Shown: piece after piece, positions 16,340 to 53,796 of the stretch | Layout: each line of letters opens with the position of its first letter | How positions within the stretch are numbered: the stretch's first letter is position 1 | Assembly (NCBI GenBank): GCA_035544875.1 | Contig: DASZZP010000038.1 | Span: 64,147 to 128,146 of the forward strand | Source of the DNA: Thermoanaerobaculia bacterium | GTDB taxonomy: Bacteria > Acidobacteriota > Thermoanaerobaculia > Multivoradales > UBA5704 | Direction: 5' to 3' | Length of the DNA: 64,000 nucleotides | Translations under genes and position numbers: made by a program | The notes under the pieces: generated by a model | What the model was told of the DNA's origin: nothing | The model's input: the letters and a program-made list of their open reading frames with translations, nothing else | Database searches by the model: none

Positions 16340-16406
16340 TTGACAGCTCTCGCTTTCCCTTCTAGACTACCGACCGACCGGTAGGATTCTACCGAGTGGC
16401 CGGTAG
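16340..16406 (+). promoter_or_regulatory. Sigma70-like promoter (TTGACA-17-TAGACT) overlapping two tandem TetR operator palindromes CTACCG-N6-CGGTAG (16367-16384 and 16389-16406)
   Basis: Seen directly. The -35 TTGACA is at 16340-16345 and the -10 TAGACT at 16363-16368. Two copies of the inverted repeat ctaccg...cggtag lie immediately upstream of the tetR start. Confidence 0.6.
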
Positions 16407-16439
16407 TTGAAAGGATTCTTCTTGGCAAGGGCAGCGGCG

Positions 16440-17162
16440 ATGGGATTGGAGCTGGCGCGGCAGCGGCACCGGGCGTTGCTCGAGACCGCGGCACGCCAGA
16501 TCTGCGCGAAGGGGTACGAGGCGGCCTCGGTGCAGGACATCGCCGATGCCTGCGGGCTCACTAAGGCGGGCCTCTACTACCACATCCGCAGCAAGGAGGA
16601 GCTGCTGCTGGAGATCATGAACTACGGGATGGACATCTTCGAGGAACAGGTCCTGCTGCCGGTGCTCGCGATCGGCGATCCCGTCGCGCGCCTCAAGGCG
16701 TGCATGGAGAAGAACATCCTGCTGGTGACCGACGGGCGGAGCAAGGAGGTCACCATCATCCTGCATGAGCACGACACGCTCACCGGCGCCGCCCGCCAGC
16801 TGATCAACGCCCGCAAAAAGCGTTACGTCAGTTTCCTCGAGTCTTCCTTCGCGGAGGCGATGCGGGAGGGGCGCATCCGCAGGGTCGAGCCGCGGGTGGC
16901 CGCCTTCTCGTTCCTCGGCATGGTGCTCTGGATCTACAAGTGGTTTCGCCCTGACGGCAAGATCCAGGCCGTCCAGCTCGCCCGCGCGATGCAGGACCTC
17001 TTTTTCGGCGGCCTCGAAACCGTGCGGGCGCCCGCCCAGGCACCGGCCCCCCGGGCGGCGAACCGGCCCTCCCGCAAGGCGATGGCGAAGCCGATGGCCC
17101 GGCGGAAGGCGCCGCAGCGGAAAGGCGCCTCGCGACGAGACGGTGTGAGAAATGCGCCCTAG
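16440..17162 (+). CDS. TetR/AcrR-family transcriptional regulator
   Basis: The N-terminal HTH is AARQICAKGYEAASVQDIADACGLTKAGLYYHIRSKEEL. The track start at 16407 is a TTG that lies inside the operator, so I prefer the ATG at 16440. The stop overlaps the start of the next gene. Confidence 0.8.
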   Translation: MGLELARQRHRALLETAARQICAKGYEAASVQDIADACGLTKAGLYYHIRSKEELLLEIMNYGMDIFEEQVLLPVLAIGDPVARLKACMEKNILLVTDGRSKEVTIILHEHDTLTGAARQLINARKKRYVSFLESSFAEAMREGRIRRVEPRVAAFSFLGMVLWIYKWFRPDGKIQAVQLARAMQDLFFGGLETVRAPAQAPAPRAANRPSRKAMAKPMARRKAPQRKGASRRDGVRNAP

Positions 17163-18201
17163 CCACGAGGTGGGGATCGCCGGCTACGGCGCCTACGTGC
17201 CGCGCCTGCGAGTGCGCACCGCCGACATCGCCGCCGTCTGGCAGGCCCGCGGCGCCGCCGCCCCGGCGGTGGCCGAGAAGTCGGTGCCCGGTCTCGACGA
17301 GGACGTGGTGACGATGGCCATCGAGGCGGCGCGCACGGCGCTCGACCGCTCCGGCATGGAGACCGGCGCGATCGGCGCCGTGTGGGTGGGGACGGAGTCG
17401 AAGCCCTACGCCGTCAAGCCGTCGGCGACCATCGTGGCCGAGGCGCTCGGCATCACCCCGCACGTCGTCGCCGCGGACCTCGAGTTCGCCTGCAAAGCGG
17501 GCAGCGAGGCGATGCAGGCGGCGGTGGCGTTCGTCGGCTCGCGCATGGTGGAAGGTGCGCTGGCGATCGGCATGGACGCCGCGCAATCGAAGCCCGGCGA
17601 TGCGCTGGAGTCGACCGCCGGCTGCGGCGGCGCCGCCTATCTCTTCGCCGATGCCGCGGACGCCCTGGCGGTGGTCGAGGCCTCGGTCTCCCACGTCACC
17701 GACACCCCCGACTTCTTCCGCCGCGAGGCCGCCCACTACCCCGAGCATGGCGGCCGCTTCACCGGCGAGCCCTCCTACTTTCGGCACACGCTGGCGGCCT
17801 CGCGCACGCTGCTCGCCGAGGTCGGGCGGGAAGCTGCCGAGTTCGCCCACGCCGTCTTCCATCAGCCGGTGCCGAAGTTCGTGGAGCGGGTGGCCGCCGA
17901 GCTCGGCTTCACCCGGCAGCAGATCCGCACCGGTCTGGTGGGGCTGCGCATGGGCAACGCCTATGCCGGCTCCTCGCTGCTCGGCCTGGCCGCCGTGCTC
18001 GACGTGGCGGCGCCCGGCGATCGCATCTTCTTCTGCTCCTACGGGTCAGGGGCGGGGAGTGACGCCTTCTGCTTCCGGGTCACCGAGCGGATCGCGGCGC
18101 GCCGCCGTGGTCCGACCGTGGTCGAGTACCTCGATCGGCGCCGGCTGGTGGACGGCTACGGCCACTACCTCCGGCTGCGGGGAAAGATCCGTGGAGCATA
18201 G
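17152..18201 (+). CDS. HMG-CoA-synthase-like condensing enzyme (archaeal-type HMGCS / 3-oxoacyl synthase family)
   Basis: The sequence includes MRPSHEVGIAGYGAYVPRLRV...EFACKAGSEA (active-site Cys)...HQPVPKF...GNAYAGSSLL. These are hallmarks of the HMGCS-like protein found with a thiolase and DUF35. Confidence 0.8.
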   Translation: MRPSHEVGIAGYGAYVPRLRVRTADIAAVWQARGAAAPAVAEKSVPGLDEDVVTMAIEAARTALDRSGMETGAIGAVWVGTESKPYAVKPSATIVAEALGITPHVVAADLEFACKAGSEAMQAAVAFVGSRMVEGALAIGMDAAQSKPGDALESTAGCGGAAYLFADAADALAVVEASVSHVTDTPDFFRREAAHYPEHGGRFTGEPSYFRHTLAASRTLLAEVGREAAEFAHAVFHQPVPKFVERVAAELGFTRQQIRTGLVGLRMGNAYAGSSLLGLAAVLDVAAPGDRIFFCSYGSGAGSDAFCFRVTERIAARRRGPTVVEYLDRRRLVDGYGHYLRLRGKIRGA

Positions 18202-18205
18202 GGGC

Positions 18206-19354
18206 ATGAGAGAGGTCTTCATCATCGGCGCCGGGCAGACCCGGGTTGGCGAGCGCTGGGATCTCGGGTTGCGAGATCTCGGCGCCGCCGCCATCCGCGC
18301 CGCCCTGGACGACGCCGGGCTCGAGACGGTGGACGCGCTGGTCGCCGGCAACATGCTGGGCGGAGCGCTCAACGGCCAGGAGAGCCTGGGCGCGCTGCTC
18401 GCCGACGCCGCCGGGATTCTCCCCGCCGAGGCCTGGAAGGTCGAGGCGGCCTGCGCCTCGGGCGCCGCCGCGGTGCGGGCCGCGGCCCTGTCGGTGGCGG
18501 CGGGCGTCCACGACGTGGCGGTTGCGGTGGGCGTCGAGAAGATGACCGACGCCGTCTCCGACCGGGTCAGCGCCGGGCTCGCCACCGCCGCGGACGGCGA
18601 CTACGAGGCCAGCCACGGCCTCTCCTTCGTCGCCCTCTCCGCCCTGCTCATGCGGCGCTACATGCACGAGACCGGCGCTGCCCGCGAGGACTTCGCGCCG
18701 TTCGCGGTCAGTGCCCACCGCAATGCGGCGGCCAACGAGAACGCCATGTTCCGCGATCCAATCTCCGCCGAGGACTACGCCCAGTCGCCGCTGGTCGCCT
18801 CACCGATCGGGGTGTTCGACGCGGCGCCGGTTTGCGACGGCGCCGCCGCCGTGGTGATCTGCGCCCGCGAGCGGCTGCAGACTCACCACCGGGCGGTGCG
18901 AATCGCCGCGGCGGCGGCGGCGACCGACACCATTGGCCTCGCGCACCGCGCCGATCTGCTCACCCTCGGCGCCGCGCGGCGATCAGCGGAGAAGGCGTTC
19001 GCGGCGAGCGGCTTCGCCCCGCAGGACTGCGATCTGTTCGAGGCGCACGACGCCTTCACCATCATCACCGCCCTGTCGCTCGAGGCCTGCGGCTTCGCCC
19101 CCCGCGGCGAGGCGCTCGAGCGGGCCGCGCGCGGCTGCTTCGGGCGCGGCGGGTGCATCCCGCTCTCGACCTGCGGCGGCCTCAAGGCGCGGGGGCATCC
19201 GGTGGGGGCGAGCGGCGCCTATCAGATCGTCGAGGCCACGGCGCAGCTGCGCCGCGAGGCGGGGCCGAACCAGGTGCCGGGCGCCCGGGTGGCGCTCACC
19301 CAATCGATCGGCGGCCACGGCTCGATTGCCGTGACCCACCTCCTCGAGGCTTGA
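18206..19354 (+). CDS. Thiolase-like acetyl-CoA acetyltransferase (SCP-x/archaeal type)
   Basis: The sequence is MREVFIIGAGQTRVGER...VEAACASGAAAVRAA...GHPVGASGAYQIVEA. The real start is the ATG at 18206, 4 nt after the upstream stop; the track's 17555 start is a frame artefact. Confidence 0.85.
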   Translation: MREVFIIGAGQTRVGERWDLGLRDLGAAAIRAALDDAGLETVDALVAGNMLGGALNGQESLGALLADAAGILPAEAWKVEAACASGAAAVRAAALSVAAGVHDVAVAVGVEKMTDAVSDRVSAGLATAADGDYEASHGLSFVALSALLMRRYMHETGAAREDFAPFAVSAHRNAAANENAMFRDPISAEDYAQSPLVASPIGVFDAAPVCDGAAAVVICARERLQTHHRAVRIAAAAAATDTIGLAHRADLLTLGAARRSAEKAFAASGFAPQDCDLFEAHDAFTIITALSLEACGFAPRGEALERAARGCFGRGGCIPLSTCGGLKARGHPVGASGAYQIVEATAQLRREAGPNQVPGARVALTQSIGGHGSIAVTHLLEA

Positions 19355-19360
19355 CGCCTC

Positions 19361-19825
19361 ATGGATCTACCCCGCTATCGTCGCTTGAATTCCGCCTACT
19401 ATCGGCTGGAAGGGAGCCGCTGCCAGGCCTGCGGCGCCTTGTGCTTCCCGGCCCGGGAGCTCTGCGGCGCCTGCCGCGGCCGCGACCTCGTCCCCTACCG
19501 CTTCTCAGGACGGGGGACCATATTCTCCTACGCCGAGGTTGCGCAGCCGCCGCGCGGGTTCGCCGGTCCTTACCTGGTCGCCCTGGTGGACCTCGAAGAG
19601 GGGGTCCGCCTCACCGCCCAGCTCACCGACGTGGATCTCGACGAGGTGCGGATCGGCATGCCGGTCGAGATGGTCACCCGCAGGCTGCAGGAAAGGGGGA
19701 CGCCGGGGCACGGCTACCTCGTCTACGGCTACAAGTTTCGTCCGGCGGCTGCGCCGAGGAGCTCTACCAACGCTCCTTCCGCCGCCTCGCCGACCGGCGG
19801 CGCACCGAGCCGCCACGCAGGCTGA
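19361..19825 (+). CDS. DUF35 OB-fold / Zn-ribbon protein (thiolase-HMGCS scaffolding subunit)
   Basis: It has a CxxC...CxxC zinc ribbon (CQACGALCFPARELCGAC) followed by an OB-fold. It is the third member of the conserved HMGCS/thiolase/DUF35 trio. Confidence 0.75.
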   Translation: MDLPRYRRLNSAYYRLEGSRCQACGALCFPARELCGACRGRDLVPYRFSGRGTIFSYAEVAQPPRGFAGPYLVALVDLEEGVRLTAQLTDVDLDEVRIGMPVEMVTRRLQERGTPGHGYLVYGYKFRPAAAPRSSTNAPSAASPTGGAPSRHAG

Positions 19826-19860
19826 CACCGGGCGCCAACCGGGACGATCGGGGCCAAGGT

Positions 19861-19878
19861 GGGCTAGGCTAGGCTAGG
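19861..19878. repeat. (GGCTAG)x3 tandem hexamer
   Basis: Seen directly as gggctaggctaggctaggtc, at the junction between the DUF35 gene and the PIN remnant. Confidence 0.6.
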
Positions 19879-20026
19879 TCGGGGCCGGCTCGAAGAGCCG
19901 CAGCAGCCCGATCCGGGCCATGCGCCGAAAGTCAGAGTCCAGCGTCCAGAGCGTGCCGGCATGCTCGGCGGTGATGGCTCCGATCAGCAGGTCGCCGAAT
20001 CCAAAGTGCTCGCCTGCCGATTTCAT
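19874..20026 (-). pseudogene. VapC/PIN-domain toxin 3' remnant (C-terminal ~50 aa only)
   Basis: MKSAGEHFGFGDLLIGAITAEHAGTLWTLDSDFRRMARIGLL matches the PIN C-terminal consensus (G..iG..DllIAA.A......LvT.n..DF.ri). Nothing upstream in this frame is PIN-like. Confidence 0.5.
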
Positions 20027-20220
20027 ATGCTCTGAGACGTCAATATTCGATAAAAAGATGCACCAAGCAGCGACCCGGGGCCGACAAGCGCTCGAGAACC
20101 TCCGCCGCGAGACGCGCGCCGAGCGGGCTTCTCCGCCCAGCTCGCGGCAGGGGTGGAGAGGAGTGGCCGGCGCGAGCCTACTCGGGTATCCTGGCCTCCG
20201 GCCAGAAGGCCGTTTCCCCC

Positions 20221-20433
20221 ATGCCGATCGACCTGGAACGGATCGAGCTCGTCGATGACAACATGGCGCACCACTTGCGCGCCCTCTCGGGTGCACAGCG
20301 CCTCGCCATTGCCAGCGGGATGTTCGCTTCCGCTCGGCGCATGCTGAGGAGCCATCTCGTCGCGGAACACCCGGACTGGGACGAGGGACGCCTGGAACGA
20401 GAGGTGGCACGGAGGCTCTCTGGAACAGGATGA
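20221..20433 (+). CDS. Small hypothetical protein (70 aa) with an R-x4-H (HEPN-like) motif
   Basis: The translation is MPIDLERIELVDDNMAHHLRALSGAQRLAIASGMFASARRMLRSHLV... The RBS is weak. It sits 17 nt upstream of the nucleotidyltransferase gene. Confidence 0.35.
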   Translation: MPIDLERIELVDDNMAHHLRALSGAQRLAIASGMFASARRMLRSHLVAEHPDWDEGRLEREVARRLSGTG

Positions 20434-20449
20434 GCTTCTCCGCTTCGCA

Positions 20450-20980
20450 GTGGGCGTCCTCGAAAAGATGGACCTGCCCTATCTCATCACTGGCTCGCTG
20501 GCCACGGTCTTCTACGGCGAGCCGCGCTTCACCAACGACATCGACATCGTGGTCGATCTCCCCGATGCGCAGATCGAAGAGCTTTGCGCCGCCTTCCCCA
20601 GTCCGGAGTTCTACCTCAGCGCTGAAGCGGCGCGGCGAGCGGTCGCGCAGAAGAGCCAGTTCAACGTGATCCATCCCGTCTCGGGCCTGAAGCTGGACTT
20701 CATCGTTCCCGCCGATACCGTCTTCAACCGCAGCCGTCTCGCTCGCGCGCGTTCCATTCACCCGGCGCCCGACTATGTCGCATCCTTCGCCTCGCCCGAG
20801 GACGTCATCCTGATGAAGCTGGACTTTCACCAGCGAGGCGGCTCCGACAAACACCTGCGCGATATCGCTGGCGTGCTCAGGGTCAGCGGCGAGCAGCTCG
20901 ACCGCGGCTATCTCGACTCCTGGGCGCGGCGCCTGGAGCTCGAAGAGACCTGGCAGGCTCTCCTGAGACGGGTGGGGTGA
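20450..20980 (+). CDS. Nucleotidyltransferase-fold protein (minimal NTase / AbiEii-MntA-like; GS-x9-RFTNDIDIV motif)
   Basis: LITGSLATVFYGEPRFTNDIDIVVDL is the Pol-beta superfamily GS...[DE]h[DE] motif. The start is the GTG at 20450 or the ATG at 20468. Confidence 0.6.
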   Translation: MGVLEKMDLPYLITGSLATVFYGEPRFTNDIDIVVDLPDAQIEELCAAFPSPEFYLSAEAARRAVAQKSQFNVIHPVSGLKLDFIVPADTVFNRSRLARARSIHPAPDYVASFASPEDVILMKLDFHQRGGSDKHLRDIAGVLRVSGEQLDRGYLDSWARRLELEETWQALLRRVG

Positions 20981-21125
20981 ATCCGCCAGGGAGCGGCCGC
21001 CGGTTCTACAGTGATACTCCATCGCCGCGCAGGGGGGCGATCACTCCCTGTAGCACCCTCGCGATCGTGACTCGGCTTCGACGCCCGGCCGGTCCGTCCG
21101 GCTTAGAATCGCCAGATGACCAGCG

Positions 21126-21260
21126 GCGGGCGCGGTAGACGCTCCCCATGCCGCCCGCTCCGAGCAGCGACACGATCTCGTAGGGACCGAGGCGGGCCCC
21201 TGGTGCGAGCCGTGTCTCGTCCGCGGCGGTGTCGTCGTCCCCGCCGGAGCTCTTATGCAT
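21126..21260 (-). pseudogene. Ser/Thr protein kinase 5' remnant (glycine-loop region only)
   Basis: [21 protein letters not shown] is a subdomain-I GxGxxG loop. No frame continues into a VAIK motif. Confidence 0.5.
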
Positions 21261-21586
21261 TTGCGTGCCGCCGCGGCCTTCCGTGAAAGCGGTTCGAGAC
21301 TATGAACATGCCGGCCAGGAAGTCAACGGCGGCGGCGCGGTGCCGGCGCGGCCCCACGGCGTGGCGATGAAGTAAGGGCCGCAGGCGATCGGGCCGCTGG
21401 CGCCGCTGCCGCGGCGCGCGGCCGGTGTCCGCACCGGTCCGGCCGCAACAGGCGTATACTTGGGGTTGCCTCTCCGTCGCGGGGCTCGGGAAAGACCGTG
21501 GCGGAGGTCTGGCGCGCAGGCTCTGGGCGTCTGGGTGGTTCCACTGGCGGAGGCCGCGTGCGGTGCTCCGCATGTTGGGGTGTCCC

Positions 21587-21615
21587 TTGACCCCGCGCCC
21601 AAGCGCCGAGAGAAT
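21587..21615 (+). promoter_or_regulatory. Candidate sigma70 promoter for tatA (TTGACC-17-GAGAAT)
   Basis: Seen directly: -35 at 21587-21592 and -10 at 21610-21615, then the GGAGG RBS and the ATG at 21633. Confidence 0.4.
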
Positions 21616-21632
21616 GCTGATCGGAGGTTCCG

Positions 21633-21866
21633 ATGTTCGAAGGACTGTTCCAGCCGATGCACCTGCTCTTGATCCTGGCCATCGCCCTGATCTTCTTCGG
21701 GCCAAAGCGGTTGCCCGAGCTGGGCAAGGGCCTCGGCACCTCGATCCGCGACTTTAAGGACGCGCTCAGCGGCAAGGACGACAAGCCGGCGCCGCCGTCG
21801 CAGATCGAAGCGACCAAGCCTCCGCCGCCGCCAGCGCCGACCGATAGCGGGCGCCCCGACGCCTGA
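21633..21866 (+). CDS. tatA: Twin-arginine translocase subunit TatA/E
   Basis: MFEGLFQPMHLLLILAIALIFFGPKRLPELGKGLGTSIRDFKDAL is the canonical TatA transmembrane and amphipathic helix. A GGAGG RBS is present. Confidence 0.9.
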   Translation: MFEGLFQPMHLLLILAIALIFFGPKRLPELGKGLGTSIRDFKDALSGKDDKPAPPSQIEATKPPPPPAPTDSGRPDA

Positions 21867-22175
21867 TTCCCTCCGCCCGCTGCCTACCACTTAGCCTTCA
21901 CCTCCAGCTCGACTGCCACGCGCGGCGGCGGCAGGACCCGCTGAGCAGCAGCGCTTTGCCCCTCTCCGGGATCGCGATCGGCAGCGGCTTGACTCCCTCC
22001 ACCAGCCCCGCTGCCCTGCTCTGCATAAACTACGTATGATGGTAGTCTGCTATAATCTGTGCGCCAGAATCGCCTGTAGAACTGACAAGTTCCGGCAATG
22101 CGTGATCTCTAGAGACAGCAACGCTGAGTTTCCAAGACACCGTAGTCCTGACCCGGGCCTCCGGACTCCAGCGCG

Positions 22176-22748
22176 GTGGACTGGCCGCTCCCTCCCCGCT
22201 GGCGGGAGCTCATCGCGAGCTGCCTCGCCGCCGCGCCGCAGGCCCGCCCGGCGAGCGCAGCCGCGGTGGCGCGCGCGCTGGCGGCCGGCCTCCCCGCGCC
22301 CTCCGCTTCCCGGAGCCAGCCGCCGCAGCCCGAGGAGGCCGGCAAGTGGATTCGCGGCATCACCGTCAAGGCTCTTGAAACCTTGGTGAGATATGCGTGG
22401 CCTGGCAACGTCCGCGAGCTCGAGCACGAGGTCCGGCTGCTGGTGCAGCGTTGCCCGGAAGGCAGCGCTATCGATTCGTCGATGCTCTCCGAGGTCATCC
22501 ACCGCGCCGGCGACGCTCTGCCCGAGGCCCACGAAGACGACTCCGAGTCGCTCGAGCTGCAACAGGCAACCGATCGTCTCGAGCGCCGGCTCATCGGCTG
22601 GGCCCTGGAACGCAGCGGCGGCAATCGCTCAAACGCCGCCAAGCTGCTGGGCATCTCCCGCAACGGTCTGGCGGAGAAGATGGAGCGCCTGGGGATCGCG
22701 CTGCGGACCGCGCCGGCCACCACCGGCAAACCTGCTAAGATCGATTGA
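22176..22748 (+). pseudogene. Chimeric fragment: a Ser/Thr kinase C-lobe remnant fused to a sigma54-activator C-terminus (AAA+ lid plus Fis-type HTH)
   Basis: WRELIASCLAAAPQARPASAAAVARAL is a kinase subdomain XI. It is followed by ALETLVRYAWPGNVRELEHEV and NAAKLLGISRNGLAEKMERLGI (sigma54 EBP end and HTH). There are no Walker A/B or GAFTGA motifs. An AT-rich patch with many stops lies upstream. Confidence 0.45.
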
Positions 22749-22749
22749 G

Positions 22750-23310
22750 ATGATCAAATCCCAGCCTTCGCTGAAGCTCACCTATCAGGACTTTCTCGAG
22801 CTGCAGGCGGACGGCAAAGGCCGCGAGCTGATCGATGGAGATCTCCACGTGACCCCCGCCGCGACCACCCGGCATCAGGCCGTGCTGCTCAACCTGCTCC
22901 GCGTGCTGGGCAACTTCGTGCATCAAGGACGCGTCGGCGTGCTGCTGCCGCCGCTGACCGACGTCCTGCTGTCGCCGGTCGACGTAGTGCACCCCGATGC
23001 GCTGTTCGTCGGCGGCGACCGGCTCGAGCTGATCAAGGAGAACCATGTCGCCGGCGCTCCTGACCTGGCGATCGAGATCCTCTCTCCCGCCTCGCGCCGC
23101 ATCGATGCGCGGATCAAGCTCCGCCTCTACGAGCGGCACGGCGTGCAGGAGTATTGGATCGTCGATCCGGAGCTCGAAACGATCGAGGTCTACTGCCTTG
23201 CGCAAGGAGCCTACCAGCGCATCGCCGAGCTCGCGCTCGAGCGCCGGGAGGTCTTGACCAGCCCCCTCTTTCCCGGCCTCAGCATCCCGCTGCTCGACGT
23301 CTTCGACTAG
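22750..23310 (+). CDS. Uma2-family (DUF820) restriction-endonuclease-like protein
   Basis: YQDFLELQADGKGRELIDGDLHVTPAAT..H..DLAIEILSPASRRIDARIKLRLYERHGVQEYWIVDP is the PD-(D/E)xK Uma2 signature. The ATG overlaps the upstream stop (TGAGATG). Confidence 0.8.
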   Translation: MIKSQPSLKLTYQDFLELQADGKGRELIDGDLHVTPAATTRHQAVLLNLLRVLGNFVHQGRVGVLLPPLTDVLLSPVDVVHPDALFVGGDRLELIKENHVAGAPDLAIEILSPASRRIDARIKLRLYERHGVQEYWIVDPELETIEVYCLAQGAYQRIAELALERREVLTSPLFPGLSIPLLDVFD

Positions 23311-23477
23311 ACGATCAGCGAGCTCCAGCCCCCTGCCGGGAGAGCAGGGACCACGCAAGTGCCATAGTTGATTCTCCGGCGGCCCGAGTCGGGGTCTCCC
23401 GGCTGCAGGGAGGCGTGGTATCGTTCCTCTCCACTCGGCTTTCTCCTGAGCTCAACACCTTCTCGAAGGGGGTCTCT

Positions 23478-24261
23478 ATGACGGTCCAATCTCCACCCGG
23501 AGCGCAGCCCACAGCGCCGCCACCCGCAGCGCCGCCGCCGCCGCCCCGAAAAGGGCTTCATCCACTGGCCTGGGTCGGCATCGGCTGCCTGGTGATCCTC
23601 CTGATGGCAGCGGCCGGCTTCGGCGTCTTCGCCTGGTGGGTCAAAGGGAAGGTCCAGAAATTCGCCGACAACCCGGCCATGACCGCGGCCGAGGCGGTCG
23701 TGCGGCTCAACCCCGACCTCGACCTGGTCAGCAAGGACGAAAAGGCGCAGACCTTGACCATCCGCGACAAGAAGAGCGGCGAGACGACGACGGTCAGCCT
23801 CGACGACGTCAAGCAGGGGCGCTTCAAGTTCTCGAGCGCCGACGGCAAGTCGGCGACCATCGACGTCAACAAGGATGGCCTCACCGTCAAGGGTCAGGAC
23901 GAGAAGGGGAAGGAGGCGACCTTCACCGCCGGCGCCAACGTCAAGAATCTCCCCTCCTGGCTGCCGGTCTATCCCGGCGGCACCACCCAGGGGTTGCTGT
24001 CGACGACCTCCAACGAGGGCAACGCGCAGATGTTCACCGTTACCTCCGCCGACTCGGTCGACAAGGTCATGTCCTTCTACCAGACCCAGCTCAAGTCGAG
24101 CGGCTTCAGCGTCCAGCCGAACGGTGATGGCGATGGGCGGCCAGTCGAGCGGCGGGCTGCTCACCGCCACCAGCGCCGACGGCAAGCGCAGCGTCCAGAT
24201 CATGCTCTCGAGCAGCGACAAGGGGACCCAGGCGGCGATCACCTTCACCGAAAAGCCCTGA
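23478..24261 (+). pseudogene. Single-pass membrane protein with internal GG-[TS]-GLL[ST]T-S repeats, interrupted by a +1 frameshift near 24130-24140
   Basis: An AAGGGGG RBS precedes it. The N-terminal Pro-rich segment is followed by the TM helix LAWVGIGCLVILLMAAAGFGVFAWW. The repeat ...GGTTQGLLSTTSNEGNAQMFTVTSADS... continues in the +1 frame as GGQSSGGLLTATSADGKRSVQIML...FTEKP*. The frame-0 reading never terminates. Confidence 0.55.
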
Positions 24262-24263
24262 GT

Positions 24264-25619
24264 TCAGTCGGCGAGCGGGCGGCCCTTGGTTTCGACGACC
24301 CAGGGGAGGAAGGCGAGGCCGGCGAGCGGCACGAAGCCGACCCAGAAGAGGGCGGTCAGGGCGCTGGCCAGCGAGTTGGCGCCCTTGGAGGCGATGCCGC
24401 CGACCAGGATCGGACCGGCGGCGGCGATCACCCTGCCGATGTTGTAGCAGAAGCCGGCGCCGGTGCCGCGCAGGCGGGTCGGGAAGAGCTCCGGCAGGTA
24501 GTAGGTGAAGCTGCCGAAGACGCCGAACACCGTGAGGCCGATCAGGAAGTACATGGCAAGGCGGGTCTCCGGCGCCAGGTCGAGGCCGAAGGTGGCGAGC
24601 ACCGCGAGCCCCGAGCCTGCGAAATAGATCGTGAACATCTGGCGCCGCCCGAGCAGCTTGGCCGCCGGGATGGTGAGCAGCGTGCCGAGCAGTCCCCCGA
24701 CGTTGAAATAATTGGTGGCCAGCGCCTTCCAGTGCTCGGAGAGCGCCAGGGTGGCCGCCCGGTCGAGCCCCTGCGCCTTGGCGGTCGCCTGCGCCAGGCC
24801 GGTCGAGATCACCGGAATGAAGGCATTGCAGCTCCACCAGGTGATCAGGGCGACCACCGCCATCAGGAAGCCCGAGAGCGTCAGGGCGCGGTGCTGCTCG
24901 TCGAACAGCATCGCCAGACGCGGCCGTGGCGCCGCCGAGGCGGCTTTCTGCCAGCGCTCCGGCTCGCGGATCATCAGCCGCACCAGGAAGGCGAAGGCGG
25001 CCGGGATCAGCCCGGCCAGGAAGACGTAGCGCCACGACACCTCCGGCTCGGCCTTCCAGAAGCGGCCGGCGATCTGAAAATTGACGAAAGTGGCCAGGAA
25101 GATCCCCAGCGGCGCCGAGGTGTAGAGCAGCGAGCCGGCCTCCACCCGGCGCTTGTCCGGCACCACCTCCGCCACCATCGCCGCCCCTGCCGCCCACTCG
25201 CCGCCGATCCCCAGGCTGGCGACCCCGCGGAAGAGCATCAACACCCACAGGTTGGGAGCGAAGGCGCAGGCCGCGGTGCCGATGGCGTACAGGATCATGG
25301 TCAGCATCAGCGTGCGGGTGCGGCCGATGCGGTCGGCGACCTGGCCGAAGAGGACGCCGCCACAGGCCCAGCCGAGCAGCAGAAGCGAGGTCAGGATGCC
25401 CGTCCAGAGCAGGGTCGCCGATTTCGCCGCCGGCGAGCCGATGGCAAGGCCGAGCAGCGTCGGCACGCAGTTGGGGGCGACGAAGTTGAACAGCACCGCG
25501 TCGAAGGCGTCGAAGCCCCATCCCAGCCAGGCGGCAAACAGCACCGCCCACTGGTAGCCGTTCATGTCGAGCAGCGTGCGGCCGGGCGCCGGCGCCGCGG
25601 CGGTGCCTGTGGAGCTCAT
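24264..25619 (-). CDS. MFS transporter (12 TM)
   Basis: The sequence includes GWGFDAFDAVLFNFV...ADRIGRTRTLMLTMILYAIGTAACAFAPN...GIGGEWAAG (MFS motifs). A GGAGGAG RBS is present. Confidence 0.85.
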   Translation of the reverse strand: MSSTGTAAAPAPGRTLLDMNGYQWAVLFAAWLGWGFDAFDAVLFNFVAPNCVPTLLGLAIGSPAAKSATLLWTGILTSLLLLGWACGGVLFGQVADRIGRTRTLMLTMILYAIGTAACAFAPNLWVLMLFRGVASLGIGGEWAAGAAMVAEVVPDKRRVEAGSLLYTSAPLGIFLATFVNFQIAGRFWKAEPEVSWRYVFLAGLIPAAFAFLVRLMIREPERWQKAASAAPRPRLAMLFDEQHRALTLSGFLMAVVALITWWSCNAFIPVISTGLAQATAKAQGLDRAATLALSEHWKALATNYFNVGGLLGTLLTIPAAKLLGRRQMFTIYFAGSGLAVLATFGLDLAPETRLAMYFLIGLTVFGVFGSFTYYLPELFPTRLRGTGAGFCYNIGRVIAAAGPILVGGIASKGANSLASALTALFWVGFVPLAGLAFLPWVVETKGRPLAD

Positions 25620-25650
25620 GGCCTGCTCCTCCCCTGGGGTCGGTCAGCTA

Positions 25651-25851
25651 GGTGGTCCAGGACAGAAATCCGGCAACATATCCGCCGGCTCTCCGCGCCC
25701 CCGGCGGCGTTGCGACCTGCAGGGAGTGCCGCTACAGGCGGAAGCTGCGGCCGCCTCCTCAGCGTATTCCCGATACGCTTGCGTCGGCGCGCCTTGCCGG
25801 GAACGCGGATTGCTCGGCGCCTCCGTTACCGGATTTCTGTCCTGGACCACC
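25651..25851. repeat. 201-bp element bounded by perfect 23-bp inverted repeats (ggtggtccaggacagaaatccgg / ccggatttctgtcctggaccacc); MITE-like or a large structured leader
   Basis: Seen directly. The IRs are at 25651-25673 and 25829-25851. There is an internal small hairpin gcgtattcccgatacgc. It lies between the rnd stop and the MFS start, 31 nt upstream of the MFS ATG. Confidence 0.6.
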
Positions 25852-25892
25852 AAGCGCGAACAATAGCAGCCGGACCGGCCGGACCGGCGCCT

Positions 25893-27053
25893 TCAAGTCG
25901 CCGAGCCGGCCAGGCGCAGCAGCTCCTCGCCGACCACCGCGCGGCGCCAGCCGCAGAGCTCGGGCGGCAGTCGAGGCTCCGGGTCGGTCAGGGCGCTCCT
26001 GAGCAGCGCGTCGAGGATGCGCCGCGGCGCCAGCAGCTCGGGCGCCAGGTCGAGGGCGACCGCCCGCGCCCGCACCGCATCGCGGAAGAGCCCTTCGAGC
26101 TGCCGCGCCGCCACGGCCGAAGGCGGCCGCCAGCGCTCGGGGGGCAGCTCCTCGGGCGGCAGCTCCACGGCGCGGCGGACGATCTCGAGCCATTGCGCGC
26201 CGTCGCGCGCCGCCTGCTGGGCGTCGAGAGCGGGAAGGCGCTCGAGCTCTTGCGCGGTGAGCGGCTGGCGGACCGCCAGGCTGAGCAGCAGATCATCACG
26301 CAGCACGAAGCTGCGCGGCAGATCGCGCCGCCTGGCCTCGCGTTCGCGCCACGCGGCCAGAGCCCGCAGCACGCCGAGCTGCCGCCGCTTGAGGCGTCCG
26401 CCGCTCCGTAGGCGGCGGTAGGCGGTCTCGGGCTCGGAGTCGAAGCGGGCGGTATCGAGGAGGGCCGCGGAGTCCTCCCGCGCCCACTCGAGCCGCCCGC
26501 GGAGCTCGAGCTCGCGCCGCAGACGCGCATAGAGCGGCAGCAGGTGGCTCACGTCTTCGGCGGCGTAAGCGAGCTGGGCCGGCGAGAGGGGCCGCGCCAG
26601 CCAGTTGGTGCGGGTCTCGCCCTTGCCGAGCTCGACCTCGAGCAGCGCCGCCACCAGCCGCTGATAGCCCAGCGCCGCGCCGGCCCCGGCCAGCCCGGCC
26701 GCCACCTGGGTGTCGAAGAGCGGCGCCGGCAGCGCCCCCAGAACGCGGTAGAGGACCTCGATGTCCTCGCTCGCCGAATGCAAGACCTTGAGCGGTGCGG
26801 GAGCTCGCAGCAGCGCGGCGAGCGGCTCGAGGTCGATGCCGGCCAGCGGGTCGATCAGGTAGGCGGCGCTGTCGTCGGCGATCTGGATCAGCCCCAGCCG
26901 CGGGAAGAAGGTCCGCTCGCGCACGAACTCGGTGTCGAGCCCGATCACCGGCTGGCGCTGCCAGCCAGCGACCGCCGCGGCCAGGGCGCCCGTCGTCTCC
27001 AGCCGCACGACGGGCAGCCGGGCCGAAGGGAGAGCGACGGCGAGGACGGTCAT
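25893..27053 (-). CDS. rnd: Ribonuclease D (DEDDy 3'-5' exonuclease plus HRDC)
   Basis: GLDTEFVRERTFFPRLGLIQIA...YAAEDVSHLLPLY are the Exo I-III motifs, and the C-terminal part is HRDC-like. The start was moved to the Met at 27053. Confidence 0.85.
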   Translation of the reverse strand: MTVLAVALPSARLPVVRLETTGALAAAVAGWQRQPVIGLDTEFVRERTFFPRLGLIQIADDSAAYLIDPLAGIDLEPLAALLRAPAPLKVLHSASEDIEVLYRVLGALPAPLFDTQVAAGLAGAGAALGYQRLVAALLEVELGKGETRTNWLARPLSPAQLAYAAEDVSHLLPLYARLRRELELRGRLEWAREDSAALLDTARFDSEPETAYRRLRSGGRLKRRQLGVLRALAAWREREARRRDLPRSFVLRDDLLLSLAVRQPLTAQELERLPALDAQQAARDGAQWLEIVRRAVELPPEELPPERWRPPSAVAARQLEGLFRDAVRARAVALDLAPELLAPRRILDALLRSALTDPEPRLPPELCGWRRAVVGEELLRLAGSAT

Positions 27054-27066
27054 CGTAGGGCCGATT

Positions 27067-27435
27067 CTAGCCCCCCTTGCCGCCCGTCCGCGTCTGCCGC
27101 TGGTGGATCGAAACCACGCTGTGATCGACCACGATGCCATCGTCCGCGGCGAGACGTCCGTAGGACTTGCCGTTGACGAACAGCTCCGCGCCTCGAATCA
27201 GGACGTCTGCATCGCGGCACGGAGTGAAGCGGTAGACCGGCTGGCCTGCCGGCGCCGTTTCTCGGCGTGGCGGTGGAACGCTCGTGCGGTAGCAATCGGT
27301 CACTACCACCCAGTGGCTGCCGACGTTCGCTTCGACCCGGCCCAGCAGCAGGTTGTTGGATCGGCTGCATGCTGCTGCCACGAGCGCCACCACGCACCAG
27401 CCGCTCAGCCCGAGCGTGCCAATCATCACCTTCAT
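27067..27435 (-). CDS. Small lipoprotein (122 aa), hypothetical
   Basis: A strong GGAGGA RBS precedes it. The signal peptide has a lipobox (LVAAAC|S). It lies 13 nt upstream of rnd on the same strand. Confidence 0.6.
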   Translation of the reverse strand: MKVMIGTLGLSGWCVVALVAAACSRSNNLLLGRVEANVGSHWVVVTDCYRTSVPPPRRETAPAGQPVYRFTPCRDADVLIRGAELFVNGKSYGRLAADDGIVVDHSVVSIHQRQTRTGGKGG

Positions 27436-27630
27436 GGAGTCGTCCTCCGTTTCCCTTGCCTATGCCTTGCTCGATGCCATAACATAGAGTACTTTGTACC
27501 GCAAAGTCAACCGTTGAGCGCCGTCCCGGCGACCGCGGGCCCATCTGCCGCCTTGCGGAAGCAATCCGCCGCAGGTGCGGCGACCGGCGGTGGCTTTACT
27601 GGCGGCCACGCAGTGGGACAGAATTGCGCC

Positions 27631-28407
27631 ATGCGACGCGAGCTCTCGGCTACCCTGCTCGCCGGTCTCCTCGCGATCATCTCGGTCGGCGCCGCCGGCT
27701 GGCCCGTGGCCGCGGCGGCGCAGGCGGTCAAGCCGGTCGACGAAACCCTCCTGGTGCCGGCCAAGGAGCTCTCCGACTACCTTCTGCAGAACATGATCGG
27801 GATCGCCGCCGTCTCGGTCGGGCTGGGAGCCGACGAGCAGGAGGAGACGCCGACCATCTATACCCTGGATGGCGACCGTCTCATCCCCTCTGGCAAGATC
27901 TTCCTGCGCGGAACTCGCCCGATCAGCACCTATCGGGTGGGCACCAGTCCGATCGTCAACCTGAGCCGCGCGGTGGTGCGGCGCTATCCGGCTCTCGAGC
28001 ACCGGGGGAGCTACGTTCGCGTCGCCCTCGATCCGAGCGGCCAGCGAAGCGAGTGGCTGCGCCTCACCCCGGAAGGGGCGTTTCCCGGCAGCGTCGACTT
28101 CGTCGACTTCGGCGACGCCAGCAGCTTTCGCTGCTACCAGCTCGATCTCTTCTATTTCAACGGCAGCGGCGAGCGGAAGCTCTTCGAACGGCCGGAGAAG
28201 AACGCGCCCTCCCGGCCCATCTCATCTACCCCCGGCAAGCCAGGCTATGTCGCGGGCGACATCGTGCCCCTGCAGCGCAAGGGCAACTTCTTCGAGATCG
28301 CCGCGGTCGCCGGCATGAACGACCCCAAGACCCCGATCGGCTGGGTCGAGCTCAAGGACCCGAGCGGCAAGCTCACCATCTGGTTCACCCCCGGCCCCGA
28401 CTGCTAG
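27631..28407 (+). CDS. Secreted hypothetical protein (258 aa)
   Basis: The signal peptide is MRRELSATLLAGLLAIISVGAAGWPVAAAAQA and the sequence is protein-like. The upstream part of the track ORF is an artefact. Confidence 0.65.
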   Translation: MRRELSATLLAGLLAIISVGAAGWPVAAAAQAVKPVDETLLVPAKELSDYLLQNMIGIAAVSVGLGADEQEETPTIYTLDGDRLIPSGKIFLRGTRPISTYRVGTSPIVNLSRAVVRRYPALEHRGSYVRVALDPSGQRSEWLRLTPEGAFPGSVDFVDFGDASSFRCYQLDLFYFNGSGERKLFERPEKNAPSRPISSTPGKPGYVAGDIVPLQRKGNFFEIAAVAGMNDPKTPIGWVELKDPSGKLTIWFTPGPDC

Positions 28408-28445
28408 GAATAATGATGCGAACCTCTGAGACGGGTCACTAGCGG

Positions 28446-29036
28446 TCAGTTCGTCTCACCGATCCGTCGGGGCAGCATCACCACGCTCTCACCAGGTTCA
28501 ATGATGTGGGCGTGCTGACTGCGGACCTCGTGAAGCTGAGCAGCCTGCTTGTAGAAATTGCCAATCGCGTAGCCGCACAGCAGCGCGAAACCATGCGTGA
28601 AGGCGAGCTTGTTCCAGAGCATTTCGAGACGAATTGCCGCGTCCTTCCTCTCCTGCTTCCACAGGACATCGACCATCTCGCCGTAGGCGCGCAGAACGGC
28701 CTGCGGACGGTCGCCGAGAATCCGCTGAATCACGCCCCCTACGTTGGCTTCAAAGGCGTTCGGGTCCGGGAAGTCGCCGACCATGAACAGGCCAAGGGTC
28801 TCAGCGGCATCGAGGACCGTCAGGTCGCAGCCGCTGCACGCCTTCTCCACATTGATGAGACGCGCTTCCAACCGGTCGAGGAGCGCCGCCCTGTGCGATG
28901 GAGTTGCAATGATGAGCGCCGGCTGCCCAGCGATCAGCCCCTCGCTGAGGAAACTGGAGACTGTCTTGAACAGGTCTTCCTCATCCCCGTAGAACTGGAC
29001 GGCGTGATGGTGGTCGACGGTAGGCTGATCAGTCAT
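28446..29036 (-). CDS. MEDS-domain protein (methanogen/methylotroph DcmR sensory domain)
   Basis: HAVQFYGDEEDLFKTVSSFLSEGLIAGQPALII is the MEDS N-terminal signature. Confidence 0.7.
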   Translation of the reverse strand: MTDQPTVDHHHAVQFYGDEEDLFKTVSSFLSEGLIAGQPALIIATPSHRAALLDRLEARLINVEKACSGCDLTVLDAAETLGLFMVGDFPDPNAFEANVGGVIQRILGDRPQAVLRAYGEMVDVLWKQERKDAAIRLEMLWNKLAFTHGFALLCGYAIGNFYKQAAQLHEVRSQHAHIIEPGESVVMLPRRIGETN

Positions 29037-29088
29037 CTGGAACCTCCAAGTAGACCCAAGAGTGTAAGCAAGAACACTGCCAAAAGGA

Positions 29089-31407
29089 TCAGGAGAAACG
29101 CTCTCCCAGGCGCTCGATCACCTGGGCAAGATCGGGCACCGTGGTCAGCACCGGCGCCAGAGGGTCCTCGCGCAGCCGGCGCAGGCGGGCGGGGACGGTG
29201 GCCAGAGTGAAGGCGCGCACGTCGAGGCGCGCGCCGACCTCGCGCCAGGTGAGGGGGGTCGAGACCGGGGCACCGGGGAAGGGGCGTACGGAGAACGGTG
29301 CGGCGAGCAGCTTGCCGCGGCCGTTTTGCAGGGCGTCGACGTAGACCCGGCCGCCGCGGGCCGGGATCGCCCGGACGGTGGTGGCGATGCGCGGCAGGCG
29401 GGCGACGACGAGCCGTGCCAGGAGCTCGGCGAGCTGGCGCGACTGTTCGTGGTCGAACTGTCCCCCGAGGGGCAAGAGGACATGCAGGCCGCTGCCGCCG
29501 CTGGTCTTGATGAAGGCGGTGAGGCCGATCTCCTCGCACAGCTCGTGGATCTCGCGGGCGATGTGGATGACGTCGGCGAAGGGCGCTCCCTTCGGATCGA
29601 GGTCCAGGATGCACCAGTCCGGCCGCTCAAGGGCGGCGAAGCGGCTCGACCAGATGTGGAGCGGGATGGCGCCGAGGTTGACCAGGGTGAGCAGCGATTC
29701 GACGCTGTCGCCGAGGAAGGCGTCGATCGTGCGCTCCCCGGCCTCGCCCTGCAGCCGCACGCTGCGCAGGCCGGCGCGGGAGGCTGCGTGGAGCGTCTCG
29801 GCGCTCTTCTGGAAAAACGACTTGCCGGCGATGCCGTCAGGATAGCGGTCAAGGACCAGCGGCCGGTCGCGCAAGTAGGCCAGCAGCCAGGGGCTGACGG
29901 CGTAGTAGTAGCGGGCGAGATCGCCCTTGGTGTAGCCCTCGTCGGGCCAGAACACCTTTCCCGGCCGCACCAGCTCGATCGGCAGCTCGCCCGTCGCATT
30001 CGAGCCCGGCACCGCTGGAGCCTGCCCCTCGCGCCCCCCACGCCCGCCGGACCCGCCACCCCGCACCGCTGCGCGGCCCGGACTCTCTCCGCCGACCGTG
30101 CCACGACCGGCCGGGACACCTCCCGCCGCCCCTCCCGGTTCTGCCGCGCGGCCCGCGCGCCGCCGGCCGGCGGCGCTCTTCCTCACCGCTGGCGGCGCCG
30201 ATGCCCCTGACTCCACCTGCGGCACCGATCCAGGGGTCGGCTCTCGCTCTTCCTCCGGAGCGGCCGCGTCCAGATCTTCGGGATGCCGGCAGTCTTGCGC
30301 CCTCTTGTCGTCGCGCAGGCGCAGGAAGATCGGTTGGCGCAGGCTGCCGCCTTCGGTCCACTCCTTGTAGCGGACTTCGCAGACCAGCTCGGGAGCGACC
30401 CAGACCGTCGACCGGTCCGCCCGCGCCGTGTCGCCGCGCAGCCCGAGGGCGGCCGGCTGGCGCCGGCGGGCGCTGGCGAGCCGGGCGGCGATCGCGGCGC
30501 GGGTCGCGCCGTTCCAGCCGCTGCCGACGCTGCCGGCATAGAGCAGACCGCCAGGGGTGTGGACCGCCATCTGCAAGGCCCGCAGGTCGCCGGACGCGGC
30601 CATCACGAAGCCGACCACCGCGAAGTCGCCGCTCCGGTCGACCCGGATCTTCTGCCAGTCGGCCGAGCGCCCGGCCTGGTAAGGGGAGTCGGCGCGCTTT
30701 GCCATGATCCCCTCGAGGCCCAGCCCCGCGACCGCCGCGAATAGCTCTTCGCCGCGCTCGGGCAGCTCGTCGACATAGCGCAGCGTCCCCCCGCCCTCGC
30801 CCGTCGCCAGCACCTGGCGCAGCGCCGACTTGCGGGCCGCGAGCGGCAGCGGCCGCAGATCGAAACCCGCGCAGGCCAGCAGATCGAAGGTGAAGAGGGT
30901 CGCCGGCGCGGCGGCCGCCGCCCGCGATGTGTCGGCGCCCGGTTGGCGCAGCGCCCGCTGCTGCAGCAGGCCGAAGCTCGGCCGAAAGGCCGCGTCCAAG
31001 ACCACAACTTCGCCGTCGACGACGAGGTCCGGGAAGGGCAGCTCGGTCACCGCGGCCACCAGCTCCGGGAAGAGCTGCGTGGCGTCGCGGCCGCTCCTGT
31101 AGAGCAGGCGCACTCTCCCGGCATCCTTGCCGGCGAGCATGCGGAAGCCGTCGTACTTGAGCTCGAACCACCAGCCGGGACCGCTGAACGGCCGCTCGCG
31201 GGTCTCGGCCTGCATGGGCACGACCTCGGCGACGTTGACCGCCAGGCGCGGCGCGCCCAGCCGGGTCAGCAGGCGGCGCAGCTCGGGGGCCGAGCCGGCC
31301 GCCGGCGCTCCAGCACCGCCGGCAGCGCCAACGCCGGCAGCGGCGCCGCCGGCGCGGCGGCCGCCGCCGCTCGGGGTTGCGTCCTGTCGTTTCTTTCCGC
31401 GCGCCAT
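29089..31407 (-). CDS. ligD: ATP-dependent DNA ligase LigD (ligase domain plus C-terminal polymerase/primase domain)
   Basis: ELKYDGFR is the adenylation Lys motif, and ligase motifs III-V follow (LEGIMAKR). The C-terminal LigD-Pol domain includes GKSFFQK, FIKTSGGSGLHV and YVDALQNGRGK. An alternative start at the Met at 31215 has a better RBS. Confidence 0.85.
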   Translation of the reverse strand: MARGKKRQDATPSGGGRRAGGAAAGVGAAGGAGAPAAGSAPELRRLLTRLGAPRLAVNVAEVVPMQAETRERPFSGPGWWFELKYDGFRMLAGKDAGRVRLLYRSGRDATQLFPELVAAVTELPFPDLVVDGEVVVLDAAFRPSFGLLQQRALRQPGADTSRAAAAAPATLFTFDLLACAGFDLRPLPLAARKSALRQVLATGEGGGTLRYVDELPERGEELFAAVAGLGLEGIMAKRADSPYQAGRSADWQKIRVDRSGDFAVVGFVMAASGDLRALQMAVHTPGGLLYAGSVGSGWNGATRAAIAARLASARRRQPAALGLRGDTARADRSTVWVAPELVCEVRYKEWTEGGSLRQPIFLRLRDDKRAQDCRHPEDLDAAAPEEEREPTPGSVPQVESGASAPPAVRKSAAGRRRAGRAAEPGGAAGGVPAGRGTVGGESPGRAAVRGGGSGGRGGREGQAPAVPGSNATGELPIELVRPGKVFWPDEGYTKGDLARYYYAVSPWLLAYLRDRPLVLDRYPDGIAGKSFFQKSAETLHAASRAGLRSVRLQGEAGERTIDAFLGDSVESLLTLVNLGAIPLHIWSSRFAALERPDWCILDLDPKGAPFADVIHIAREIHELCEEIGLTAFIKTSGGSGLHVLLPLGGQFDHEQSRQLAELLARLVVARLPRIATTVRAIPARGGRVYVDALQNGRGKLLAAPFSVRPFPGAPVSTPLTWREVGARLDVRAFTLATVPARLRRLREDPLAPVLTTVPDLAQVIERLGERFS

Positions 31408-31441
31408 CGAAAAACCGCGTAAGGAATGGTATATTAGCCGA

Positions 31442-32515: not shown

Positions 32516-32551
32516 CGTCCGGCTGAACGCTCGCGGAGTAGACTGAGGGCG

Positions 32552-53523: not shown

Positions 53524-53635
53524 GAGAACCCCCTTGGGACGACGCCTGGGCCTTGGCGCTGATCCCGCTGAAAGAGGGAATTATACCACCGTCCCATACC
53601 CCTCCCGCGCGCCGAGCCCCGGAGGCGCCGCGTCC

Positions 53636-53700
53636 ACGACCACGAGATTCCCGGCCGGGCCGAGCCCTTCGCGCGACCGCCTCGCCGGGCGCATTCCGGT
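53636..53700 (+). repeat. About 60-bp near-identical copy of an internal segment of the propeller/phosphoesterase gene (41.24-41.30 kb), in the padR upstream region
   Basis: gagcccttcgcgcgaccgcctcgccgggcgcattccggtcggctggtt matches the reverse complement of the 41.2-kb segment at about 44 of 48 positions. Both encode ...PSP.RDRLAGRIPVGW. Confidence 0.55.
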
Positions 53701-53796
53701 CGGCTGGTTGGCCATCCGCCCACCATCATCTCCATTCTCACCTTGCCATCTCAGGGGTCGCCGTGCGAAGATGCCCTTAGATCTTTAGGGGTGACC

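Follow-up and report, generated by a model that had tools for sequence, protein, structure and literature searches.

The DNA analysed here is a 64,000-nucleotide stretch (the window) of contig DASZZP010000038.1 from a Thermoanaerobaculia bacterium, with a mean GC content of 69.9%. Within it a patch of 3.7 kb (19745–23480, probably extending to 24261) is likely to be a lineage-specific mosaic, the outcome of several independent events (insertions, deletions and possibly inversions). Its remnants are supported as real by their sequences and derive from a PIN toxin, one or two Ser/Thr kinases and a sigma54 activator. Pieces of four genes in it can no longer do their original jobs: the tail of a PIN toxin, the glycine loop of one kinase, the C-lobe tail of a kinase and the lid with helix-turn-helix (HTH) of an activator. 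No fewer than five separate events, each a truncation or a junction, are needed to explain the patch: a foreign tail gained by a DUF35 gene, vapC cut at its 5′ end, a leftward kinase cut at its 3′ end beside a toxin–antitoxin pair, a rightward kinase cut at its 5′ end and an in-frame kinase–activator deletion; a frameshift in a gene at the right edge (gene X) may be a sixth. The repeated insertion and deletion proposed in the first-pass annotation of this region, which was made from the letters alone, is borne out by this count. Each item listed in that annotation was found in the sequence with statistical support, some at refined coordinates. The same annotation spoke of a recombination hotspot, for which the criterion is repeated events at one site across several lineages. 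A hotspot is not established, because we found no genome near enough for the ancestral state or a recurrence of events to be seen. What the patch shows is ordinary genome wear at a site of unconserved gene order and no new system.

The activator remnant and one kinase remnant are joined in a single open reading frame (ORF) of 190 aa, ORF190 (22176–22748, + strand), which we examined with Pfam, tblastn and a graft test described below. Residues 54–184 (22335–22727) form a partial AAA+ lid followed by HTH_8; AAA_lid_14 matches at E = 4e-11 over profile positions 21–81 of 87, and HTH_8 at E = 2.5e-13. Homology to activators begins by tblastn at residue 54 (nt ~22335) and the activator part is 58–65% identical to a subfamily of sigma54 activators, each homologue covering about 64% of ORF190. 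The C-terminus also matches 29 NCBIfam families, most of them sigma54 activators, and carries both the lid and the HTH_8 domain. Sigma54_activat (PF00158), the domain with the Walker A/B and GAFTGA motifs, gave zero matches to ORF190 and the other frames of the patch. No frame of the six contains the AAA+ core, which has been lost by deletion and not by a frameshift. Lacking this ATPase core, ORF190 cannot activate sigma54. No plausibly placed sigma54 promoter was found in the patch either; the pattern TGGCAC-N5-TTGC with at most one mismatch occurs three times in the 64 kb against 3.3 expected, which is chance level, and the site at 20264–20278 lies inside the antitoxin coding sequence.

Full-length relatives, the closest activators found and of FHA-...-AAA+-HTH_8 architecture, lie close to a kinase gene on two loci, L003 and L004. 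Residues 54–184 of ORF190 correspond to the lid and HTH_8 end of these FHA-domain enhancer-binding proteins (NtrC/PspF class). ORF190 differs from them in having no FHA domain, central region or AAA+ core, and in carrying a kinase-derived N-terminus instead. Both loci (L003 3805–10933; L004 3741–10924) show the same conserved module of a Ser/Thr kinase (−), an AAA_16/TPR gene (+) and the activator (+); a frameshift near 9850 interrupts the activator gene of L003.

The N-terminal kinase piece, a subdomain XI remnant at residues 5–42 (22188–22301), was recognised by the graft test, in which we record the bits gained by a domain model when a short fragment is appended to a truncated real member. 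Residues 5–42 (LPPRWRELIASCLAAAPQARPASAAAVARALAAGLPAP) were appended to two real kinases truncated just ahead of subdomain XI. The gains were +10.2 and +9.0 bits for Pkinase and +14.5 and +11.6 bits for PK_Tyr_Ser-Thr, compared to +2.0 and +7.0 bits (Pkinase) and +4.5 and +3.0 bits (PK_Tyr_Ser-Thr) for the kinases' own native segments. The controls (13 shuffles and one reversed fragment) gained at most +3.4 bits with Pkinase and +0.3 bits with PK_Tyr_Ser-Thr. The grafted fragment stretched the kinase alignment to profile position 258 of 263. Two PADLOC models of PD-T4-6, which we take to be a protein kinase, match ORF190 as well, one with residues 5–56 at positions 238–290 of 311 (E = 2.6e-4) and the other at 240–282 of 347 (E = 8e-4). 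We accept, with the caveats given below, that the N-terminus of ORF190 is probably a kinase tail. The first-pass annotation had read this frame as a kinase C-lobe remnant fused in frame to a sigma54-activator C-terminus without the AAA+ core, and this reading holds on the graft test and PD-T4-6 matches for the one half and on AAA_lid_14 and HTH_8 for the other. It had also named orthologues that show this frame to be an intact, conserved small regulator as a finding that would undo it. A word-seeded search of 5.8 billion proteins and a full HMMER search of 1.84 billion representatives gave no orthologue with this architecture, and this check does not refute the reading. The N-terminus by itself has no homologue among the 5.8 billion and matches only itself among the 1.84 billion. 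Coding periodicity in this stretch is nevertheless strong, with in-frame GC at third codon positions of 0.88–0.95 from ~22130.

The second kinase piece lies on the opposite strand, in an ORF of 84 aa (21006–21260, −) that is kinase-like only at residues 18–45 (nt 21126–21209), the glycine loop. Over these 28 residues many acidobacterial Ser/Thr kinases show 86–93% identity at their N-termini, with E values down to 8.5e-8 among the 5.8 billion proteins. Five NCBIfam kinase models match the ORF at their glycine loop (AfsK, E = 9.4e-5), and the PDB matches listed (60 of 69) are all kinases, the best of those listed being PknE at E = 0.026. Pfam gave no match to the ORF, Pkinase included. No frame continues the kinase past YRAR, and the tail of the ORF is unrelated to kinases. 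The 28-residue match and the five NCBIfam models thus agree with the 5′ kinase remnant, limited to the glycine loop, that had been called from the sequence at the outset. A complete Hanks-type catalytic domain (glycine loop, VAIK lysine, HRD, DFG, APE and subdomain XI) is absent from both kinase pieces: the − strand piece has the glycine loop alone and the + strand piece subdomain XI alone, and neither alone matches Pkinase. A set of 66-aa kinase N-terminus products among public proteins (P0133–P0218) was considered as a family and rejected; the members diverge after ~45–55 residues and end at the same length. Judging by their sequences they look like frameshifted kinase genes, sharing an out-of-frame stop that we presume to be a TGA across conserved Leu-Asn codons, and they probably come from indel-rich long-read assemblies.

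At the left end of the patch sits the C-terminal remnant of a VapC/PIN toxin, ~50 aa on the − strand (19874–20041; callable ORF 19874–20026). It aligns with PF01850 at positions 88–119 of 120 (E = 0.017), with TIGR00028 at 113–141 of 143 (E = 0.009) and with NF047959 at 94–122 of 125 (E = 0.049). The three matches are individually weak, yet all fall at the C-terminal end of the model. This agreement, at E = 0.009–0.049 and sub-threshold throughout, is in line with the VapC/PIN 3′ remnant first proposed. No further PIN signal was found upstream of the remnant in any frame, the N-terminal two thirds and the antitoxin being missing; only model positions ~88–120 are present and not the complete ~120–130-aa PIN fold with its four conserved acidic residues. 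A PDB search with the remnant returned spurious repeat-protein (Pizza) matches only. A low-GC island (19961–20070, minimum 50% GC) lies at the 5′ break of the remnant. Profiles of GC and of GC at third codon positions (GC3) locate this and other low-GC islands and show a coding-type frame in ORF190. They do not fit the statement in the first-pass annotation that everything else in the region is 70% GC, since the toxin–antitoxin pair has 62–67% GC and the island at 19961–20070 is a second one.

The left junction is the lineage-specific 3′ tail of a DUF35/OB-fold (ChsH2-type) gene (19361–19825, +; Pfam OB_ChsH2_C, E = 9.8e-20). Two Thermoanaerobaculia genomes, L005 and L006, align to window 16362–19745 at 77–84% and then diverge fully; blastn homology ends at 19745 for both, at 83% identity in L006 and 77% in L005. 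With the DUF35 protein (154 residues) as tblastn query, only residues 1–128/136 were matched in relatives. The last ~27 codons (19745–19825, +), where blastn and tblastn homology stops, are unique to the window compared with L005 and L006. The M48 peptidase that is the downstream neighbour in these two genomes was found at window 2011–3184 on the opposite strand. The DUF35 gene belongs to a cluster at 16362–19825 with TetR, HMG-CoA-synthase-like and thiolase-like genes, 83–84% identical in DNA to L006; we take the cluster to resemble the archaeal-type thiolase/HMG-CoA synthase/DUF35 arrangement. An exact-sequence look-up of the thiolase and DUF35 proteins of the window returned no public record.

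On the right, shared gene order with loci L016 and L017 restarts at 23672, in a blastn block (23672–25613) that comprises the major facilitator superfamily (MFS) gene and gene X only. Gene X (23478–24261, +), just outside the patch proper and conserved beside the MFS gene in L016 and L017, encodes a membrane-anchored protein and has a frameshift at ~24117–24120: the L016 orthologue aligns by tblastn to 23547–24116 in frame 3 and to 24121–24255 in frame 1. It is a further degraded gene, or possibly a read error common to both available assemblies. Orthologues of the MFS gene occur in 80 metagenome loci at 64–84% identity, gene X in two of them (L016 and L017). The other neighbours in the window were found beside the MFS gene in none of the 80 loci, nor does the patch occur in any of them. 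Among available genomes the nearest reach only 75–84% identity in DNA, with no common gene order across the patch. The syntenic alignment proposed with the annotation accordingly places the patch at a break in collinearity (19745/23672) and recovered neither the uninterrupted ancestral genes nor a rate of events.

Signs of mobility were sought in the same interval. A six-frame Pfam scan, which covered 58 further open frames of at least 40 aa across 19700–23520, returned only toxin–antitoxin families and one chance-level match, with no integrase or transposase in the patch. No tRNA or tmRNA was found, and an Rfam search of the whole window gave zero matches. Direct, inverted and tandem repeats are short and at chance level, with nothing bounding the patch; a (GGCTA)x3.4 run lies at 19862–19878. 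Neither the window nor ~0.87 Mb of comparison loci has a copy of the 20000–20110 junction, of the spacer at 21261–21632 or of the AT-rich island upstream of ORF190. The patch is similar to bacterial toxin–antitoxin and defence clusters with decayed neighbours, in that a VapC remnant, a nucleotidyltransferase pair and a Uma2 gene stand at a synteny break and a relative has a similar cluster beside a kinase gene. It differs from them in having no detectable mobility genes or boundaries and a housekeeping tatA in the middle. In another Thermoanaerobaculia metagenome-assembled genome a PhdYeFM/PIN/YoeB cluster lies directly upstream of a kinase gene.

A sequence of events consistent with this anatomy can be proposed. 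Arrival of the MenAT1-like toxin–antitoxin pair would have cost the leftward kinase its 3′ part and vapBC its 5′ part. A second deletion would have joined the end of the rightward kinase in frame to the activator lid. The 5′ part of the rightward kinase would have been lost up to the AT-rich, promoter-type island, and the upstream DUF35 gene would have gained its foreign 3′ tail. A mosaic origin is supported by the lower GC of the toxin–antitoxin pair and by its recurrence as a two-gene module elsewhere (locus L064).

The nucleotidyltransferase toxin of Mycobacterium tuberculosis adds nucleotides to tRNA 3′ ends and so blocks their charging, and a small antitoxin neutralises it. The pair in the patch appears to be of the MenAT1 type. 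Its first gene (20221–20433, +) encodes an intact 70-aa antitoxin of the MenA1 (Rv0078B) type (PF18993, E = 2.6e-9; 37.4 bits, cut-off 27.1). After a gap of 16 nt follows an apparently intact MenT1-like nucleotidyltransferase toxin, probably of the DUF1814/AbiEii family (20450–20980, +; 176 aa, or 170 aa if started at the ATG at 20468). By phmmer the toxin has one PDB relative, 8AN4 (E = 2.3e-4, ~24 bits), with residues 12–127 (116 residues) on 22–140; it scores 19.8 bits (E = 8e-4) with Pfam AbiEii, under the gathering cut-off of 22.5, and has zero matches in NCBIfam and PADLOC. 8AN4 is MenT1, and MenA1 is Rv0078B, of 68 aa (PMC10435456). The segments EPRFTNDIDIVV and LMKL of the window toxin align with EPRFTRDVDIVV and AMKL of MenT1. 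Four MenT1 positions have been mutated (T39, D41, K137 and D152; PMC10435456). In the alignment the first two pair with Thr and Asp in EPRFTNDIDIVV and the third with Lys in LMKL; the fourth lies outside it. The pair resembles MenAT1 (Rv0078B–Rv0078A) in having a ~70-aa PF18993 antitoxin directly upstream of a ~180-aa candidate nucleotidyltransferase of the DUF1814/AbiEii family, and in keeping the residues aligned with the EPRFTRDVDIVV segment and the AMKL lysine. It differs in that the toxin is only distantly related, is sub-gathering for AbiEii and belongs to an acidobacterial host. What had been annotated as a 70-aa protein and a nucleotidyltransferase can on the PF18993 and 8AN4 matches be refined to a MenA1/MenT1-like pair. 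Locus L064 carries a homologous pair at 5110–5897, MenA1-like (77 aa) and nucleotidyltransferase (185 aa), overlapping by 4 nt; it sits ~4 kb from an MFS orthologue in a context otherwise unrelated to the window.

To the right of the glycine-loop ORF a GC-rich spacer of 372 bp (21261–21632) has no family match in six frames and contains two outward-facing promoter-like sites (−, 21326–21299; +, 21587–21615), against 0.2 expected. It is followed by tatA (21633–21866, +), which encodes 77 aa, has a GGAGG 5 nt before its ATG and matches PF02416, the model of short TatA/E proteins with an N-terminal transmembrane helix and an amphipathic helix, at E = 1.8e-17 (62.7 bits, cut-off 21). GC3 is 0.88–0.95. 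Its description as an intact gene is confirmed; for the promoter of its own that was also claimed, the evidence is a consensus match (TTGACC-17-GAGAAT) at 21587–21615. A GC3-like periodicity (phase 1, 0.85–0.90) runs beyond the tatA stop on both strands (21860–22026). It coincides with a 42-aa − strand ORF (21898–22026) that has no family match and may be one more unrecognisable remnant.

The Uma2-family PD-(D/E)XK endonuclease gene (22750–23310, +) is intact, with a PF05685 match over positions 2–171 of 172 (E = 7.8e-33) that agrees with the original assignment; it also matches PADLOC PDC-S03 at E = 8.6e-37. Going by their family matches, the MenAT1-type pair, tatA and Uma2 presumably work as their families do.

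The likely promoter region of ORF190 and Uma2 is an AT-rich island at 22011–22150 (+), seen in the GC profile with a minimum of 47% GC. It contains an extended −10 box, TGCTATAAT, at 22048–22056, that is, a TATAAT at 22051–22056 preceded by TGn, and this is the only + strand TATAAT in the window. The palindrome TCTCTAGAGA lies at 22106–22115. The exact TATAAT and the 10-bp palindrome noted initially are both present, and we refine the bounds of the island to those above. The window has 188 perfect 10-bp palindromes, and the palindrome alone is therefore unremarkable, although TCTCTAGAGA is among only five AT-rich ones. That the island is a junction scar is not evident: low-GC islands of this kind occur seven times in the window, at least three others lying between divergent genes (such as LigD/Ku), and the extended −10 faces the downstream ORF. 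It has no Rfam match and the predicted fold of the island RNA with its leader is not unusual (z = −0.48). The simplest reading of the sequence is that the island is likely an ordinary promoter region. The one other TATAAT of the window (53580–53588, −) also has the TGn extension and lies at the boundary of genes 51376–53580 (−) and 53572–54129 (+). LigD (ligase and primase-polymerase) and Ku, a non-homologous end-joining pair, are divergent genes at 29089–32600 with low-GC islands at 31411–31700 between them.

Several points weigh against the mosaic as drawn here. With no close genome found, the ancestral genes and exact breakpoints were not recovered, and how many events there were and in what order is an inference. 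The PIN remnant is below threshold in every model. The kinase C-lobe call depends on a graft fragment bounded by eye, few shuffles and one sub-threshold library match; direct searches of the 63-aa N-terminus of ORF190 for a kinase returned nothing in Pfam and chance matches in the PDB. Both assemblies were probably built from the same short reads. A rival reading is that the fragments are an assembly artefact, chimeric metagenomic reads having been joined at conserved kinase or activator motifs. The sequence is a metagenome-assembled genome, the kinase homology ends right after its most conserved motif, and the Logan contig of run SRR12277194 ends at 19652, ~90 bp left of the synteny break at 19745; that end could be an assembly-graph branch from a co-existing strain variant. 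The same contig is 100% identical to window 19652–33310 without gaps (13.7 kb). A second, independent and conservative assembler therefore reproduced every internal junction of the patch, and a mis-join by one assembler is unlikely. A join through a kinase motif would moreover run into another kinase, not unrelated sequence, and the intact genes are tightly packed with consistent frames; we regard an artefact as very improbable. It is also improbable that the patch is a horizontally acquired island that arrived whole with the fragments already inside. Such an island would agree with the sharp loss of synteny on both sides, the lower GC over 19900–20900 and the defence and toxin–antitoxin type content (the MenAT-like pair, Uma2 matching PDC-S03, the PIN remnant). 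The flanking blocks are themselves rearranged among relatives, so the loss of synteny is not specific to insertion; the patch has no integrase or transposase in six frames, no tRNA and no flanking direct or inverted repeats, and GC3 of tatA and ORF190 is native-like (about 0.85–0.95). By their geometry the two kinase pieces could come from a single gene that an inversion around tatA cut in two, but a ~600-bp deletion would then be needed as well.

A different objection is that ORF190 looks like a gene in use. Its frame is open with coding-type GC3 throughout (0.82–0.95 in frame from ~22130), and its lid/HTH part retains every one of the 16 residues invariant in the family, as well as 39 of the 40 columns that are at least 90% conserved. 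On these grounds ORF190 could be a working small DNA-binding protein, a repressor or Fis-like, expressed with Uma2 from the AT-rich promoter and binding the enhancer sites of the old activator or DNA more generally; we consider this unlikely. AlphaFold2 gives a confident model for residues 61–175 (predicted local confidence, pLDDT, of 79–97, with a dip to ~62–70 at ~111–130), the extended −10 box is 120 nt upstream, and the stop lies 1 nt ahead of the Uma2 start. There is also a precedent: a passage in PMC7166090, citing Morett and Bork (1998), gives Fis as thought to be derived from the NtrC C-terminal domain. Like Fis as treated there, ORF190 is a stand-alone HTH_8 module parted from the ATPase; Fis is a conserved and abundant family, whereas ORF190 is a singleton with no orthologues. 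Against a working protein stand the architecture and N-terminus, unmatched in either protein set, the lid cut at profile position 21, residues 1–55, which are modelled at pLDDT 46–63 with two low-confidence helices at residues 7–36, and the lack of a clear ribosome-binding site ahead of the GTG start. There is a bias in the conservation test, the set having been picked by similarity to ORF190, and a recent deletion would look alike. The most likely reading of ORF190 is a young remnant that would still be transcribed, together with Uma2, from the extended −10 promoter of the island; rather than simply degraded, it may be of recent origin or even now in use.

The value of these results is mostly one of annotation. 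The public record has the 84-aa ORF as "hypothetical protein" and ORF190 as "helix-turn-helix protein"; kinase remnant and kinase/activator chimera without ATPase would be the better labels. The graft test may help elsewhere, where a domain remnant is so short that ordinary profile searches miss it. It is a long shot that ORF190 is a newly born Fis-like regulator, a fusion of kinase tail, lid and HTH_8 made by deletion under a sigma70-type promoter and co-transcribed with Uma2; if true, it would be a natural replay of the proposed origin of Fis from NtrC, caught early. The patch adds a probable MenAT1-type toxin–antitoxin pair to the Acidobacteriota, and is a clean example of toxin–antitoxin and nuclease cassettes gathering where signalling genes broke.

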